In this document: piece after piece, positions 6,523 to 40,262 of the stretch | Layout: each line of letters starts with the position of its first letter | Numbering within the stretch: the stretch's first letter is position 1 | NCBI GenBank assembly: GCA_029288725.1 | Contig: JARIGS010000023.1 | Location: 20,582-84,581, forward strand | DNA length: 64,000 nt | Source: Candidatus Nomurabacteria bacterium | GTDB lineage: Bacteria > Patescibacteriota > Minisyncoccia > Phycocordibacterales > UBA9973 | Direction of reading: 5' to 3' | The notes under the pieces: model-generated | The model's database searches: none | What the model was told of the DNA's origin: nothing | The model's input: the letters and a program-made list of their open reading frames with translations, nothing else | Made by a program: the position numbers and the translations under genes

Positions 6523-7716
6523 ATGGCTGCTGAAGCTTTCGATCGTTCAAAGCCGCACGTAAACGTAGGTACCATTGGTCACGTTGACCACGGTAAGACT
6601 ACCCTTACTGCTGCTATCCTCCATGTTCTTAACATGGCTGGAAACCAAGTTAAAATGAAAGGTGTTAGTGATATTGACGGTGCTCCTGAAGAAAAGGCAC
6701 GTGGAATCACTATTAACATCTCTCACAACGAGTACTCTACTGCTACTCGTCACTACGCACACATTGATGCCCCAGGTCACGCTGACTACATCAAGAACAT
6801 GATTACTGGTGCCGCTCAGATGGACGGTGCAGTGCTCGTGGTTGCTGCGACTGACGGTGCTATGCCTCAGACTCGTGAACACATCCTTCTTGCGAAGCAG
6901 GTTGGTGTGCCAAAAATCATTGTCTTCCTTAACAAGTGTGACATGGTTGATGACCCTGACATGCTCGACCTCGTGGAAGAAGAAATCCGTGAAATCCTTG
7001 GTAAGCAAGGCTTTGACAAGGATTGTCCTGTAATCCGCGGTTCAGGTCTTAAGGCCCTTGAAGCAACTTCTATCGAAGATCCATGGGCTCAGAAAGTGCT
7101 TGATCTTTGTAACGCACTTGATACGTACTTCCCACTTCCAGAACGTGACGTTGATAAGTCTTTCCTTATGCCGATCGAAGACATATTCTCTATTGAAGGT
7201 CGCGGTACAGTGGTAACTGGCCGTATCGAACGCGGTATTGTGAAGGTTGGTGAAGAAGTAGAAATTGTTGGTATCAAGGATACTGCCAAGACTACTGTTA
7301 CCGGTATCGAAATGTTCAACAAGCAGTTGACTGAAGGTATGGCAGGTGACAACGCAGGTATTCTCCTCCGTGGCGTGAAGAAAGAAGACCTTACTCGCGG
7401 CCAGGTGCTTGCGAAGACAGGTACTGTGAAGCCTCACACCGAATTCGAAGGTGAAATCTACGTATTGAAGAAAGAAGAAGGTGGTCGTCACACCCCATTC
7501 ATCAACGGTTACAAGCCTCAGTTCTACATCCGTACAACTGACGTGACCGGTGAAGTAACACTTCCAGCAGGAACAGAAATGGTTATGCCAGGCGACACCG
7601 TGAAAATCACCGTGAAGCTCGTTGTACCAGTTGCGCTTGAAGACCAGATGCGTTTCGCTATCCGTGAAGGTGGCCGAACAGTCGGTGCAGGTGTTGTTAC
7701 TAAAGTTATTGCGTAA
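6523..7716 (+). CDS. tuf: Elongation factor Tu
   Basis: [26 protein letters not shown]. 397 aa. Confidence 0.98.
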
Positions 7717-7756: not shown

Positions 7757-8110
7757 ATGGCAACAACAAAAACAACCAAGAAAACAGCAAAGAAGGAGGA
7801 CCTTCAGTCAATGCTTCGAATCCGTGTTCGTGCTTACGAAAACAAGATTCTTGATGCTTCAGTGAAGCAGATCATTGACACTGCAGTTCGTTACGATGCA
7901 GTAGTACGAGGCCCAATCCCTCTCCCAACTGAGATCAAAAAGTACACCGTGAACCGTTCACCGTTCATCTACAAGAACTCCCGTGAACAGTTCGAAATGC
8001 GCGTGCACAAGCGTCTCATCGACATCGAGAACCCATCACCAAAAGTGATCGAATCTCTGACAAACCTATCAATGCCTTCAGGCGTAGATATCGATGTCAA
8101 AATGATGTAA
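7757..8110 (+). CDS. rpsJ: 30S ribosomal protein S10 (with N-terminal extension)
   Basis: IRVRAYENKILDASVKQIIDTA...GPIPLPT...FEMRVHKRLIDI. Confidence 0.95.
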   Translation: MATTKTTKKTAKKEDLQSMLRIRVRAYENKILDASVKQIIDTAVRYDAVVRGPIPLPTEIKKYTVNRSPFIYKNSREQFEMRVHKRLIDIENPSPKVIESLTNLSMPSGVDIDVKMM

Positions 8111-8114
8111 TCGC

Positions 8115-8147
8115 AAAAAGAACCCCGAAAGGGGTTCTTTTTGTTTT
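8115..8147 (+). terminator. Rho-independent terminator after rpsJ
   Basis: AAGAACCCC-GAAA-GGGGTTCTT + TTTGTTTTC. Confidence 0.75.
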
Positions 8148-8190
8148 CTTTATCTGGAATTTATCTCATAGTGGTAGAGTATATCCGCCT

Positions 8191-8580
8191 ATGATTAAAA
8201 ATTTTTTAGAATGGATTGGATTAAAAGAGAAATTGGATAGCAATTCAGAAAAACCCGTATATTTTAATGAAATGGAGATATGGTGGGCGGCATTGGGAGA
8301 AAACATTGGAGTAGAGATAAATGGCAATGGTGAGATGTTTTCTCGACCAGTGCTGATATATAAAAAGATAAGTCCGGGGAGTTTTTTAGCAGTCCCTCTG
8401 TCTACTCAAATAAAACAAGGTTCTTGGTATACGGAACTTGATTTTAAAGAGGCTAAAATTTCTGCTAACCTAGCCCAAATTCGTATTATGAGCAGTGCTC
8501 GTCTATACGATAAGATGGGGGAAGCTAATATTGAGGATTTTGAAAAAGTAAAAAGCGGATTTCTCCGCCTTTACTCATAA
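8191..8580 (+). CDS. MazF/PemK-like endoribonuclease-fold protein (putative orphan type II toxin)
   Basis: The core EIWWAALGENIGVEINGNGEMFSRPVLIYKK...SFLAVPLSTQIK aligns with the PemK/MazF/EndoA motif GDVYxADLSPxxGSEQxGxRPVLVIxxD...xVVAxxTxQ. Preceded by a 25-aa conserved N-terminal extension. AT-rich, about 33% GC. No adjacent antitoxin ORF. Confidence 0.5.
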   Translation: MIKNFLEWIGLKEKLDSNSEKPVYFNEMEIWWAALGENIGVEINGNGEMFSRPVLIYKKISPGSFLAVPLSTQIKQGSWYTELDFKEAKISANLAQIRIMSSARLYDKMGEANIEDFEKVKSGFLRLYS

Positions 8581-8657
8581 ATTTTCCCTTTCGGGAACGT
8601 GGGTAACCCCAAAAATTACTCTTTTATTCTATTCCAGGCCCTGATAGGTGTCAAATG

Positions 8658-8685
8658 TTGCACTTTTTTGAATCCCGTGTATAAT
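8658..8685 (+). promoter_or_regulatory. Promoter for rplC-rplD-rplW-rplB (TTGCAC-16-TATAAT)
   Basis: -35 at 8658..8663 and consensus -10 at 8680..8685. Lies downstream of the MazF-like insertion and re-initiates the S10 operon. Confidence 0.5.
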
Positions 8686-8751
8686 CCTGGGACTTGTTAA
8701 TTAATGGTCCAATGCCTTCGGGGGAAGCTCCAGGGTACGAACAAAAAAGCA

Positions 8752-9357
8752 ATGAAATATATTTTAGGAACAAAAGTAAATATGACCCAGCTCTTTGACG
8801 AGAGTGGTAAGGTCGCACCTGTCACTATCGTGAAGGCTATGCCAAACGTAGTAACTGGTATCAAAACCATCGATCGCGATGGATACACAGCAGTGCAGGT
8901 TGGTACTGTTGAGCAGAAGGAATCTCGTGTTGCAAAGGCTCAGCTTGGGCAGTTTGCTGGCAAGGGATACAAGGAAGTGCAGGAATTCCGCACTGATGGT
9001 GCCCCTGAGGCAACAATTGGTGACACCGTAACCGTGGAATCATTTGAAAAGGGTGATTCAGTAACCGTTACTGGCACTTCAAAGGCAAAGGGCTTCCAGG
9101 GTGTCGTGAAGCGTTACAACTTCAAGGGTGGACCACGTTCACACGGTCAGAAGCACTCAGAGCGCGAACCAGGTTCTATCGGTGGTGGTCTTCGTACGCA
9201 CGTACCAAAAGGTATGCGCATGGCGGGACGCACTGGCGGTGACACCGTAACCGTAAAAGGGTTGAAGGTTGTTGCGGTTGATGCAGAAAATAACCTTCTC
9301 TACATTAGTGGAGCAGTACCAGGTCGTCGCGGTACCGTTATTAGTATTGTTGGTTAA
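8752..9357 (+). CDS. rplC: 50S ribosomal protein L3
   Basis: MKYILGTKVNMTQLFDESGKVAPVTIV...GFKGGPRSHGQKHSEREPGSIGGG. Confidence 0.95.
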   Translation: MKYILGTKVNMTQLFDESGKVAPVTIVKAMPNVVTGIKTIDRDGYTAVQVGTVEQKESRVAKAQLGQFAGKGYKEVQEFRTDGAPEATIGDTVTVESFEKGDSVTVTGTSKAKGFQGVVKRYNFKGGPRSHGQKHSEREPGSIGGGLRTHVPKGMRMAGRTGGDTVTVKGLKVVAVDAENNLLYISGAVPGRRGTVISIVG

Positions 9358-23559: not shown

Positions 23560-23982
23560 ATGAAATGGTATTTTGCGTCAAGGATGCGTCACAAAGAAAA
23601 GCTTGTAGAAGTTAGTGATTTTTTAAAGAGCAAGAACGAAACCATTCTTTCACAATGGATTTACGAAGATTCTCTAAAGCCCTATGATCAAAATATTGAT
23701 AAAGTGAACGTCTTATCAAAGAAGGTGGTGAGCAATCTTTTAGATTCAGATATTTTTGTATTAATTAGCGATCCGGAAGGAACGGATATGTTTATTGAGC
23801 TAGGTGTTTGTTTGGCAAAAAAGGAACTTTCAAAAAACATAAAAATTTATATTGTAGGAGGATACGCAAAACGGTCACTGATGCAGCTTCATCCTGACAT
23901 ACTGCATGTGAAGGATATAAAGGAACTGTTTACCTTAGAAAATATAGATACTCAAGAAGTTACGATGCCAAAATTGTCATAA
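23560..23982 (+). CDS. Nucleoside 2-deoxyribosyltransferase-like Rossmann-fold protein
   Basis: DIFVLISDPEGTDMFIELGVCLAK...IYIVGG resembles the D-x-G-T-x-F-E-x-G-x-A core of the Nuc_deoxyrib_tr-like family. AT-rich islet. Confidence 0.45.
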   Translation: MKWYFASRMRHKEKLVEVSDFLKSKNETILSQWIYEDSLKPYDQNIDKVNVLSKKVVSNLLDSDIFVLISDPEGTDMFIELGVCLAKKELSKNIKIYIVGGYAKRSLMQLHPDILHVKDIKELFTLENIDTQEVTMPKLS

Positions 23983-24031: not shown

Positions 24032-24429
24032 ATGGTTATGCAGAAAGATTTTAATACATGGAATAAGAAGAAAAAGGTATTAGATGATAATAAAATTAAA
24101 TACAGTTTCTTTTACCATGAAAGGGAAATATGGTGGACATCAATAGGTTTAAATATTGGAGTTGAAACGGACGGTAAAAATGACTCTTTCGAAAGGCCTG
24201 TCTTAATAATTAAAAAATTCAATAAAGATATGTTTTGGGGTATTCCGCTAACCTCTCATAAAAAAGAAGGAATATTTTTTTTGAAATTATTCACCCGGAT
24301 GGAACATCTTGGGCGATATTAAGTCAAATGAGAGTTTTTAGTACGAAAAGGTTGTTGAGAAAAATGACCACTATGTCTCGGATAGAATTTCATTACTTAA
24401 AAACAAAAATAATGGAGTATTTAATCTAA
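24032..24429 (+). pseudogene. Second MazF/PemK-like gene, frameshifted at a T8 homopolymer (24275..24282)
   Basis: Frame A gives ...REIWWTSIGLNIGVETDGKNDSFERPVLIIKK...EGIFFLKLF then a stop. A shifted frame continues HPDGTSWAILSQMRVFSTKRLLRKM...EYLI, which aligns with the C-terminus of the 8191..8580 paralog (GSWYTELDFKEAKISANLAQIRIMSSARLYDKM...). Confidence 0.5.
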
Positions 24430-24434
24430 CAAGT

Positions 24435-24466
24435 AAAACGAATCCCCCTCGTAAAAGGGGGATTCT
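24435..24466 (-). terminator. Terminator for rplT (hairpin GAATCCCCCT-CGTAAA-AGGGGGATTC read on minus strand, then T-rich run)
   Basis: Hairpin immediately 3' of rplT on the minus strand. Confidence 0.55.
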
Positions 24467-24503
24467 CGGAGGCCTAGGCCACTAATACTAACAGTGTATC
24501 AGA

Positions 24504-24848
24504 TTATGATACCTTGTCTACGATTCGCTTGAAGGTTTCAGGATTGGTGTGAGCAAGGTCTGCAAGGATCTTACGGTCTACCTCGATGCTGTTCTTCTTA
24601 AGCGCATCCATGAACTTTGAGTAGGTCGTGCCAAGGGTGCGGACTGCAGCATTGATCTGAATCTGCCAGATGCGACGCTTGTCGCTTTTCTTGTCACGGC
24701 GGTGCGCAAAGGCGTAACTACCAGCATGAGCGATGGCATCCTTTGCCATTCGTTCCTTGGTACTGCGACCAAAACGGTAGCCCTTTACCTGGGCTAGGAC
24801 GTTCTTGCGGCGCTTATTTGCTATGGTTCCTCGTTTTACGCGTGTCAT
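24504..24848 (-). CDS. rplT: 50S ribosomal protein L20
   Basis: MTRVKRGTIANKRRKNVLAQVKGYRFGRS... Confidence 0.95.
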   Translation of the reverse strand: MTRVKRGTIANKRRKNVLAQVKGYRFGRSTKERMAKDAIAHAGSYAFAHRRDKKSDKRRIWQIQINAAVRTLGTTYSKFMDALKKNSIEVDRKILADLAHTNPETFKRIVDKVS

Positions 24849-28676: not shown

Positions 28677-28683
28677 TAATTTG

Positions 28684-29064
28684 TGGAGATGGGGGTATCG
28701 AAACCCCGTGTGGGTGGAGTGGGCAAGTAAATCTCCATGCGTAGTATCACTTAATGTTTAAGCAACGATCTCGAAGTAATACGAAACGATCATTGTCCGA
28801 GTCTCGTCTTATTCGGTGCGCTCCTGAGACGGGGAGGGCTGCCTATTCTGATGCATGTTGCCGCGAAGTCCTTATCAGAAATCTAGACTGCGACACCAAT
28901 TTGACCTAAGTTAGGCGAAGATTGGAATAGCGCCTGCCATGTAGGGAGACGCTACCTTAGATGAACTGTTTGCAGTTATCTGTGTGAGCGAAGGTTACGG
29001 GATTGCGCTCATACCCGGCATGCATACTTGTCCGACGACCATCCGTCGAAACCTTACATCCCCA
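28684..29064 (-). ncRNA. ssrA: tmRNA (transfer-messenger RNA)
   Basis: The minus-strand RNA starts GGGGAUGUAAGGUUUCGACGG. The 3' end ...CACGGGGUUUCGAUACCCCCAUCUCCA forms a 7-bp acceptor stem with the 5' end, including a G3-U70 wobble (alanine identity). CCA is not encoded. An internal tag-like frame GCA AAC AGU ... ends AUUCCAAUCUUCGCC-UAA. Sits immediately 3' of smpB. Confidence 0.8.
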
Positions 29065-33705: not shown

Positions 33706-33779
33706 CCGTCCTTAGCTCAGTTGGTTAGAGCTCCGAGCTTATACCTCGGCGGTCCATGGTTCGAATCCATGAGGACGGA
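33706..33779 (+). tRNA. tRNA-Ile with anticodon UAU (TAT)
   Basis: Cloverleaf: acceptor CCGTCCT/AGGACGG, D arm GCTC-AGTTGGTTA-GAGC, anticodon stem CCGAG/CTCGG with loop CTTATAC, T arm CATGG-TTCGAAT-CCATG, discriminator A. CCA is not encoded. Confidence 0.75.
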
Positions 33780-33824
33780 CAAACAAAAAACCCAGATAAA
33801 AATATCTGAGTTTAATTTCTTTTA

Positions 33825-40079: not shown

Positions 40080-40164
40080 GGAGGATTGGATGAGTGGTTT
40101 AAATCAACGGTTTACTAAACCGTCGGCTGTCACAGGCCCGTGAGTTCGAATCTCACATCCTCCG
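40080..40164 (+). tRNA. Class II tRNA (Ser-type: 3-bp D stem, long variable arm, G73) with apparent anticodon ACU
   Basis: Acceptor GGAGGAT/ATCCTCC. D stem GAT/ATC. Anticodon stem ACGGT/ACCGT with loop TTACTAA. Variable arm about 16 nt. T arm GTGAG-TTCGAAT-CTCAC. CCA is not encoded. GCU or a UCN-reading anticodon was expected; A34 is unusual. Confidence 0.6.
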
Positions 40165-40262
40165 CCTTCGCCGCGCTGAAGCGACGGCTACGGCGCGACA
40201 CAGTCCGCCCAGTAGCAAGTCGCGAAAGCGGGTTCGCCGCGCCGTAGCTTCGACGAAACGCA
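40164..40262. repeat. Longest GC-rich hairpin-repeat family copy, overlapping and abutting the tRNA 3' end
   Basis: CCTCCGCCTTCGCCGCGCTGAAGCGACGGCTACGGCGCGAC...CGCCGCGCCGTAGCTTCGACG. Contains both GCTACGGCG and its reverse complement CGCCGTAGC as an imperfect roughly 16-bp inverted repeat. About 70% GC in a roughly 35% GC neighbourhood. Confidence 0.6.

Follow-up and report, generated by a model that had tools for sequence, protein, structure and literature searches.

Does a toxin gene that stands alone within a ribosomal protein operon have a partner, and if so, of what kind? The question is raised by an open reading frame (ORF) of 129 amino acids (aa) in a 64-kb stretch of Candidatus Nomurabacteria DNA (contig JARIGS010000023.1; hereafter the window), where a gene for a protein of the MazF/PemK fold lies between the ribosomal protein genes rpsJ and rplC. 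A first-pass annotation had placed this ORF at 8191-8580, coordinates that are exactly confirmed here, and had described it as an orphan. The latter description does not hold, as a conserved, convergent small RNA (sRNA) gene is predicted to overlap the 3′ end of the toxin gene both here and in nearly all of its relatives. Based on sequence comparison, we propose that toxin and linked sRNA form a toxin-antitoxin module in which the RNA would serve as antitoxin, a reading to which we give a probability of roughly 60%.

A predicted sRNA gene at the 3′ end of the toxin gene

The features on which this proposal depends are listed here by their position in the window; labels such as L004 denote related loci collected from other genomes.

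8191..8580, plus strand: gene for the MazF/PemK-fold toxin, with ATG start, 129 aa
8191-8262, plus strand: family-specific N-terminal helix of the toxin (residues 1-24; helix predicted at residues 3-18)
8626..8654, minus strand: sRNA promoter, with -35 TTGACA at 8654-8649, a 17-nt spacer and -10 TAGAAT at 8631-8626
8545..8620, minus strand: predicted class-1 sRNA (~75 nt), complementary to the final ~30 nt of the toxin ORF and to the 3′ flank
8611-8600, minus strand: hairpin A, which follows the 5′ leader of the sRNA
8597-8584, minus strand: GNRA-capped hairpin, the second of the sRNA
8572-8551, minus strand: sRNA terminator hairpin and U tract, found by a terminator scan, within the toxin ORF

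The promoter matches the consensus at 11 of 12 positions and is the top promoter-like site between 7700 and 8800 in a consensus scan. For the predicted RNA, folding gives a three-hairpin structure (-27.1 kcal/mol, z=-4.2), and the covariance models described below recognise it at 8572-8618 on the minus strand (E=1.3e-6 with R1, the first model, and 5.6e-8 with R2, the refined one), which is their sole strong match in the window. In comparison with L004, the body of the toxin ORF is ~67% identical, and its last ~40 nt together with the next ~45 nt are nearly identical. This near-identity of the ORF ends is explained by the overlapping sRNA gene, the region of which is far better conserved between the two loci than synonymous sites are. 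Among the window, L004 and L009, the promoter hexamers are kept while the spacer is free, and the loop reads GAAA/GCAA/GUAA, always conforming to GNRA. The extent of the overlap varies: in the clade of the window the sRNA ends inside the last 30 nt of the ORF, while in most relatives it is ~50 nt long and ends at the toxin stop codon.

In Rfam 15, no family gave a gathering-score match to the sRNA in the window, and none matched 8000-8900 even at E<=10. A ToxI-like tandem-repeat RNA was considered and rejected, as a repeat search found no tandem repeats around the toxin gene. Long-range pairing between the 5′ and 3′ parts of the toxin mRNA (inverted repeat 8212-8234/8614-8636) was likewise discarded, being not conserved in L004 as judged by eye. 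The toxin ORFs of L024, L027, L033, L037, L042, L047 and L074 have no stop before the sRNA element and continue through its complement, which gives them tails such as KKFPPPFGGVVGKNPK; the window has the same peptide-like frame after the toxin stop codon (IFPFGNVGNPK).

Conservation of the element across the toxin family

When the 3′ flanks of all loci are listed, a conserved element appears behind virtually every family member. On the minus strand it consists of TTGACA, 16-18 nt, TATAAT or TATACT, ~6 nt and a short A/U leader, after which come the 4-bp G-C hairpin A, the linker CG(A/G), a longer hairpin whose sequence is free, and AAUAUUUUU. A covariance model built from 35 examples and scanned on 763 kb of loci returned 88 matches at E<=1e-3. 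For 85 of these, a family toxin ORF lies on the other strand with its 3′ end no more than 80 nt away (at the median, there is an overlap of 3 nt with the last sense codon). Seen from the side of the toxins, 83 of 94 ORFs carry a match, and additional matches within a locus mark additional toxin paralogues. The three matches without an adjacent toxin ORF comprise two tandem second copies and one orphan. Second tandem sRNA copies in three loci and one toxin-less sRNA were recorded at L052 5463-5518, L088 5498-5560, L056 5449-5566 and L057 2717-2773.

The element covaries as a structured RNA would. Pairing is found in 94.6% of cells, against 59% when the partners are slid by one column, and compensatory changes occur in all 12 pairs (221 double-change cells); in hairpin A, for example, 50 sequences close with C-G and 40 with U-A. 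Read on the minus strand, at least 48 of 92 sequences have a GNRA tetraloop at the apex of the second hairpin, against 1 of 92 on the plus strand, and there are more G-U than A-C pairs (47 and 22). A promoter agreeing with the sigma-70 consensus at 10 or more of 12 positions lies within the 60 nt upstream on the RNA strand in 80% of loci; controls from the opposite strand and from random 60-mers of the same loci reach this level in ~1%. Moreover, the -10 hexamer ends exactly 4 nt before the first position of the model in 65 of 82 loci. Taken together, linkage, covariation, strand bias and the phased promoter argue for an RNA gene and against a chance palindrome or a DNA recombination site. The comparison thus establishes, at the level of sequence, a conserved RNA structure with a promoter in fixed phase and an essentially one-to-one linkage to the toxin. 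The primary sequence of leader, hairpin A and linker is also preserved where the toxins themselves share only 45-60% identity. Neither 13 class-1 loci nor 19 loci of a second class (see below) gave a match at E<=1 to Rfam 15, which includes the pemK motif (RF02913).

The toxin and the search for a protein partner

The protein is of the MazF/PemK fold, as had been proposed from its sequence, with the catalytic Arg and Ser/Thr evidently intact. Hidden Markov model search and structure prediction agree on this point: residues 28-124 match Pfam PF02452 (PemK_toxin) with 33.9 bits, above the cut-off of 23.1 (E=4.1e-8), and an AlphaFold2 model made with 118 homologues as input has a predicted local distance difference test value of 85.2 and a predicted template modelling score of 0.75. 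In a Foldseek search against the PDB, the best 50 matches were all MazF/PemK proteins (probability 1.0, template modelling scores 0.59-0.77), led by the MazF proteins of S. aureus, M. tuberculosis, B. subtilis and E. coli. When the protein is aligned to B. subtilis MazF/EndoA by BLASTP or by profile, R52 corresponds to R25 and S71 to T48, R25 and T48 being the catalytic pair of the 4MDX work. R52 is invariant across the family and position 71/72 is Ser or Thr throughout. Endoribonuclease activity and growth inhibition are predicted on these grounds.

What sets the family apart is its N-terminus. Residues 1-24 are not part of the segment that can be aligned to solved MazF structures, the profile match beginning at residue 24, and F5, W8 and K12 are invariant in all 118 homologues, which bears out the earlier observation of a conserved extension absent from canonical MazF and makes it a family-wide trait. 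The β1-β2 loop, a low-confidence part of the model, is strikingly invariant as well (G36, N38, G40, E42, G45). Among PHROGs, only the generic 'MazF-like growth inhibitor' phrog_9567 matched, and this match also covers the N-terminus; NCBIfam and the PADLOC defence models gave zero matches for the toxin.

No protein partner emerged. Clustering of every ORF with 35 aa or more that lies no further than 450 nt from the toxin, at 80 loci of species-representative genomes, revealed no conserved protein-coding neighbour beyond local synteny and shadow ORFs; apparent families of mini-ORFs were translations of the sRNA element itself or shadow ORFs of transketolase. A small protein antitoxin was therefore rejected as a candidate, clustering having yielded no shared family, and the earlier remark that no antitoxin-sized ORF flanks the gene is extended to these ~80 loci. 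At the window locus, there is no adjacent co-transcribed protein antitoxin of the MazE/PemI, AbrB or ribbon-helix-helix kind, the 80-nt gap upstream holding only the rpsJ terminator. The first-pass annotation had held that an overlooked antitoxin ORF next to the gene would overturn its orphan status. No such small ORF exists, but an adjacent predicted RNA gene takes its place, by which the orphan status is overturned in spirit.

Most toxin genes, in class-1 and class-2 loci alike, have no Shine-Dalgarno sequence. Leaderless mRNAs are suggested for a minority, roughly a quarter of the loci, by a -10-like box 6-8 nt ahead of the ATG, and several Peribacteria loci have TATAAT 20-21 nt upstream of the ATG instead.

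A second copy and a second class of predicted sRNA

The window contains a further MazF-like gene of a sister subfamily, with a predicted sRNA of its own class.

24032..24429, plus strand: copy 2 of the MazF-like gene, sister subfamily, frameshifted by the loss of 1 nt in the T8 run 24275-24282
24433..24520, minus strand: class-2 sRNA with its promoter (-35 TAGACA at 24520-24515, -10 TACACT at 24498-24493)
~24486 to 24433, minus strand: class-2 sRNA, with AUUAGU leader, GGCC-UA-GGCC hairpin, UCCGAG linker, terminator hairpin at 24465-24440 and U tract

The second copy that had been noted at 24032 thus exists, but its reading frame is disrupted, and its true span is 24032-24429. An intact 130-aa orthologue has TTTTTTACTTT at the position of the T8 run. 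When the frame is reconstructed, the 132-aa product aligns over 98% of its length to intact homologues of 129-131 aa and matches Pfam PemK_toxin at E=5e-8 (33.6 bits). The intact orthologue occupies the matching site in related genomes, in the order secY-adk-map-[toxin] and convergent to rplT-rpmI-infC. The frameshift could reflect a pseudogene, a sequencing error in the homopolymer or a phase variant arising by slipped-strand mispairing.

A metagenome scan for the sister subfamily gave 75 usable loci, and in 73 of these a convergent promoter is followed, in fixed phasing, by AUUAGU, GGC-UUCG-GCC, UCCGAG, a terminator hairpin and a U tract. Nine class-2 loci carry the compensatory variant GCC-UUCG-GGC, and the class-2 stem of the window has two compensated positions relative to L092. 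The leader, hairpin and linker sequences of class 1 and class 2 differ and track the toxin subfamily, and both classes are present in the genome of the window. Homologues on plasmids of Nitratiruptor and Helicobacter suis (Campylobacterota) have, by eye, a like layout with other sequences.

In the region of L092 that corresponds to 24433-24520 of the window (L092 2893-3013), rplT and the sRNA promoter are separated by a hairpin terminator of their own. The window has no such terminator; here the -35 hexamer of the copy-2 sRNA falls within the last part of rplT, and the infC-rpmI-rplT operon may share the terminator of the sRNA. Between map and copy 2, the window further holds an AT-rich ORF of 140 aa (23560-23982, 34% GC) with no significant Pfam match. 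It is absent at L092, where the toxin follows map directly, and may be another small insertion.

A possible RNA antitoxin and its mode of action

From these patterns we infer a transcribed sRNA that neutralises a toxic protein. In the proposed mechanism, an sRNA of ~75 nt would start at the near-consensus promoter and run from the opposite strand towards and into the toxin gene. It could act in a type I-like mode, with duplex formation and convergent transcription lowering the level of toxin mRNA. Alternatively, in a type III-like mode, the sRNA would bind the toxin itself, serving as decoy or pseudo-substrate. Should the RNA be the antitoxin, we lean tentatively towards a combination of the two modes; antisense action alone is possible though somewhat less expected, and protein binding alone is the least expected of the three.

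Each mode finds some support. On the plus strand, no U tract follows either hairpin of the element, and since no toxin terminator precedes the sRNA promoter, the toxin mRNA is predicted to carry a perfect complement of the sRNA. Pure cis-antisense action, on the other hand, would leave the sequence of the RNA unconstrained, so that the conservation of its primary sequence speaks for a function beyond antisense. Because leader, hairpin A and linker are conserved across such divergent toxins and differ between subfamilies, they probably have a sequence-specific ligand, most plausibly the toxin, and this subfamily-specific conservation of the unpaired part of the sRNA is indirect evidence for an RNA that would bind and inhibit the toxin directly. 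The N-terminal helix and the invariant loop of the protein are, speculatively, candidate RNA contacts. Intramolecular inhibition by the helix, as once suggested for this protein, is no longer needed to explain how the cell survives the toxin.

Several points weigh against an RNA antitoxin. The sRNA is known as a sequence prediction, and the toxicity of the family is itself deduced. The covariation counts come from an alignment that was fitted to the model, and the asymmetry between G-U and A-C pairs is only ~2:1. Behind the GNRA hairpin, the U tract is not continuous (AAUAUUUUU), and in the clade of the window it is poor. Pairing in trans between the 5′ part of the sRNA and the 5′ region or coding sequence of the toxin was tried and rejected: energies are no better than those of shuffled controls, and this conserved part shows no complementarity above chance (z ~0), so that complementarity is confined to the overlap in cis. 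An antisense effect on translation initiation is for that reason unsupported, and antisense pairing at the 3′ end alone seems a weak safeguard against a toxin that is an enzyme. No single covariance model serves for all versions, as R1 and R2 fail on the copy-2 class and on the plasmid versions; with class 1 these share the architecture only. Finally, in L090, from a Nitratiruptor plasmid, toxin and downstream element are followed by a 62-aa gene (1955-2143) that was read as ribbon-helix-helix-like; it could encode a plasmid copy-control repressor or a protein antitoxin used in that lineage.

Insertion, age and distribution of the module

The position of the module within the S10 operon involves the following neighbours.

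7757..8110, plus strand: rpsJ (ribosomal protein S10), upstream neighbour from the ORF list, 95-97% aa identity to S10 of L004 and L009
8113..8144, strand-symmetric: terminator hairpin from the terminator scan, with A-run, 14-bp stem and T-run
8658..8751, plus strand: presumed rplC promoter (TTGCAC at 8658-8663, TATAAT at 8680-8685) and leader of ~65 nt
8752..9357, plus strand: rplC (ribosomal protein L3), downstream neighbour, likely start ATG at 8752

Pfam Ribosomal_S10 and Ribosomal_L3 are found on the syntenic genes of rpsJ and rplC in L004. Further out lie tuf upstream (6523-7716) and rplD, rplW and rplB downstream, and the toxin ORF itself begins 80 nt 3′ of rpsJ and ends 171 nt 5′ of the likely rplC start. 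In the related Paceibacterota genome L011, the gap between rpsJ and rplC is 12 nt, and the 644-nt stretch of the window is on this account an insertion that split the S10 operon, in agreement with what had been supposed of a gene wedged between the two. Under the proposed mechanism, the insertion of the module would have split the operon such that rpsJ gained a terminator and rplC a promoter of its own. The terminator of rpsJ is now specified as the 14-bp hairpin at 8113-8144, which shows a compensatory stem change between the window and L004; it would also block antisense read-through from the side of the sRNA. As for the fresh rplC promoter that had been suggested, TATAAT and the leader are kept in the window, L004 and L009, while the -35 is weak and the consensus promoter scan did not call it, so that a promoter at 8658-8685 is plausible from sequence and no more firmly placed than that. 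It stands back-to-back with the sRNA promoter. The leader contains a stem with a variable loop in the same three genomes and may serve to regulate the part of the split operon that begins with rplC.

The GC content is 35.9% for the toxin ORF and 38.1% for the insert (8111-8751), against 44.9% for rpsJ, 47.8% for tuf and 49.0% for rplC. The earlier contrast of 33% with 48% was therefore right in direction and slightly overstated. Horizontal acquisition, which it had been taken to indicate, has to be qualified, as recent arrival does not fit the evidence. The module lies between rpsJ and rplC in three species-level genomes (window, L004/L010 and L009). Between the window and its orthologues in L004 and L009, the toxin has a synonymous divergence (dS) of 1.3-2.6 with a ratio of nonsynonymous to synonymous divergence (dN/dS) of 0.10-0.19; the values are 0.45-0.74 and 0.06-0.09 for tuf, 1.5-3.1 and 0.05-0.08 for rplD, and dN/dS ranges over 0.02-0.09 among the four flanking genes. 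An insert at the same site in at least three species-level genomes, with dS as saturated as in its flanks and dN/dS of 0.10-0.19, is old and maintained. Judged from these sequences, the toxin was already at this site in the common ancestor of the three genomes and has been kept functional, and purifying selection is evident on both toxin and sRNA. Allele replacement or recent horizontal transfer as the reason for an ORF body ~67% identical between nearly identical ends was rejected, as dS of the toxin falls within the range of rplD. A target-site duplication was also considered: a direct repeat (8070-8087/8710-8727) with the exact 10-nt core CAATGCCTTC links the end of rpsJ and the rplC leader at a spacing of 640 nt, about the size of the insert. 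With a chance expectation of ~0.3 and no conservation in L004, this repeat is probably due to chance.

The family is large. A word-index search returned 336 toxin homologues and a non-redundant search 1,826 cluster representatives at E<=1e-3, chiefly from Patescibacteria, and among the matches listed most span nearly all 129 residues of the query. Named sources are nearly all Patescibacteria (Nomurabacteria, Paceibacterota, Saccharibacteria, Peribacteria/Peregrinibacteria, Gracilibacteria), with others on plasmids of Helicobacter, Campylobacter and Nitratiruptor. Genomes often contain multiple copies, such as five paralogues within 7 kb in L056 and four in tandem in L075. Most members lie away from ribosomal genes, among glycosyltransferases, by transketolase genes, on plasmids or in multi-copy arrays. 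In eight loci (L027, L030, L037, L074, L033, L047, L068, L076) the module lies in a split transketolase, with the N-terminal half on one side and the C-terminal half on the other, and a position adjoining tuf is another recurrent site. Carriage by phages was not seen in INPHARED (tblastn) or in IMG/VR.

Among other RNA genes of the window, ARAGORN reports tRNA-Ile with anticodon UAU and tRNA-Ser with anticodon ACU at 33706-33780 and 40080-40166, both anticodons being unusual for bacteria, and a tmRNA gene lies at 28681-29063 on the minus strand (Rfam RF00023, 89 bits).

Alternative explanations

Perhaps the element is not an antitoxin but transcriptional punctuation, that is, an insulator made up of a terminator and an outward promoter, or a cis-regulatory 3′ untranslated region of a mobile cassette whose toxin is otherwise controlled. 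This is the most credible of the alternatives, although still unlikely. The element is made of hairpins adjoining A/T runs, modules do occur inside operons (between rpsJ and rplC, in split transketolase, next to tuf), and the terminator of the copy-2 sRNA comes directly after rplT, where it could double as an operon terminator. An insulator, however, needs no near-consensus promoter directed into the toxin at a fixed 4-nt phase, no conservation of leader, hairpin A and linker that tracks the toxin subfamily, and no GNRA and UUCG tetraloops on the minus strand. With no U tract behind the hairpins on the plus strand, the toxin mRNA would not terminate there either. Some of these features also bear on the idea of a DNA-level site, integron attC-like or other, that mobilises the toxin as a cassette, which we hold to be very improbable. 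A solo gene that resembles a cassette, has inverted repeats at its 3′ end and occurs in many genomic contexts would be expected with such a site, but the element has two short, separate hairpins in place of one long imperfect palindrome, lacks R′/R″ core sites, and has no linked integrase or recombinase according to neighbour clustering, while an asymmetric tetraloop bias and phased sigma-70 hexamers with a free spacer are features of RNA genes.

The other two alternatives leave the RNA aside. A MazF-fold protein that needs no partner, being either inhibited by its own N-terminal helix or domesticated as an RNase tied to ribosome biogenesis, would account for a helix with invariant F5, W8 and K12 that canonical MazF lacks, for purifying selection on the gene, and for two copies in the window that both adjoin translation genes at sites conserved in relatives. 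Yet most members lie far from ribosomal genes, on plasmids or in arrays, which fits a mobile module better than a housekeeping gene; copy 2 is frameshifted and thus dispensable, and the tightly linked sRNA would go unexplained, so that we consider this improbable. A conventional type II toxin with a protein antitoxin encoded elsewhere and acting in trans is slightly less probable again. Solo toxins are common and trans-acting antitoxins have been proposed (Makarova et al. 2009, PMC2701414), and the window covers only 64 kb of the genome. Against this, ~80 loci have no conserved small protein neighbour, small plasmids such as the 5.8-kb plasmid of H. suis carry toxin and downstream element without a MazE-like gene, and a mobile module cannot depend on an unlinked antitoxin.

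Relationship to known toxin-antitoxin systems

MazF and PemK are textbook type II toxins. With MazEF and PemIK (Kid-Kis) the present family shares the fold, the catalytic Arg and Thr/Ser, the C-terminal helix and PF02452; it differs in the lack of an upstream MazE/PemI gene, in the extra N-terminal helix of ~24 residues and the invariant β1-β2 loop, and in the convergent sRNA. By gene anatomy only, it resembles type I systems, in that a cis-encoded antisense RNA gene overlaps the toxin transcript. The closest layouts are the convergent, 3′-overlapping type I pairs txpA/RatA and bsrG/SR4 of B. subtilis and par fst/RNAII of E. faecalis, in which the sRNA likewise has a strong promoter and a terminator of its own and no protein antitoxin exists. 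The toxins of these pairs are membrane peptides of <60 aa, and sRNAs of the txpA/RatA type are conserved among close relatives only. Here, in contrast, the toxin is not a small hydrophobic peptide (usually <60 aa) but a soluble, 129-aa protein predicted to be a MazF-fold RNase, the overlap is ~50-75 nt, and the unpaired 5′ part of the sRNA is conserved across phylum-level lineages. Nuclease toxins with a small RNA in cis or near-cis are known in E. coli: SymE has the AbrB fold, its SymR overlaps the 5′ end and the ribosome-binding site, and RalR, paired with RalA, is a DNase. Neither of these two systems has the MazF fold or the convergent arrangement at the 3′ end.

Type III systems (ToxIN, AbiQ/antiQ, CptIN, TenpIN) also combine an endoribonuclease of the wider Kid/MazF-like class with a structured RNA that neutralises it and tracks the toxin family, and a few of the present loci have two sRNA copies in tandem. 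Their RNA, however, is an upstream, same-strand tandem-repeat array processed by the toxin, while that of the present family is a single convergent downstream unit with a predicted promoter of its own. Nor is the toxin a ToxN/AbiQ, CptN or TenpN protein: in Pfam it matches PemK_toxin only, and its structural neighbours are MazF. The pemK RNA motif (RF02913, from the Breaker-lab 224-motif survey) is a structured RNA near pemK/mazF genes too; presumably it lies upstream of pemK in Firmicutes, and it differs from the present element, which it does not match and which is convergent and downstream. Lastly, MazF-mx of Myxococcus xanthus also lacks an adjacent mazE, being a solitary toxin neutralised by the regulator MrpC (PMC2701414); it is thus controlled by an unlinked protein and has neither a linked sRNA nor the N-terminal extension. 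The module departs from the defining architecture of types I, II and III and, by analogy, would work most like 3′-overlapping type I pairs or, for an enzyme toxin, like SymE/SymR. Full-text searches of the literature turned up no MazF-family toxin described as having a linked RNA, be it antisense or antitoxin, nor any account of the two present RNAs, in a search that did not extend to the supplementary data of the 224-motif survey.

It is doubtful, though conceivable, that all of this amounts to a widespread and undescribed type of module, a type I/III hybrid in which a MazF-fold RNase, distinguished by its N-terminal helix and invariant β1-β2 loop, would be bound and thereby neutralised by a single, independently transcribed, convergent sRNA that also pairs with the mRNA. 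This hybrid, at the same low odds taken jointly, would include at least two cognate toxin-sRNA specificity classes in one genome, and its RNAs would be the first conserved sRNA families defined for the Candidate Phyla Radiation. The two structured-RNA families described here are new and strongly supported, in organisms with hardly any known small RNAs, none of them validated according to a preprint on the TM7x transcriptome. About half of the toxin homologues in genomes are 'solo' and unexplained (PMC2701414). If the present family is neutralised by its linked sRNA, a large class of 'orphan' MazF genes would be explained, whose RNA partner is overlooked by annotation that considers ORFs only. 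The boundary between types I, II and III would then be blurred, with one toxin fold being served by protein or RNA antitoxins according to lineage.

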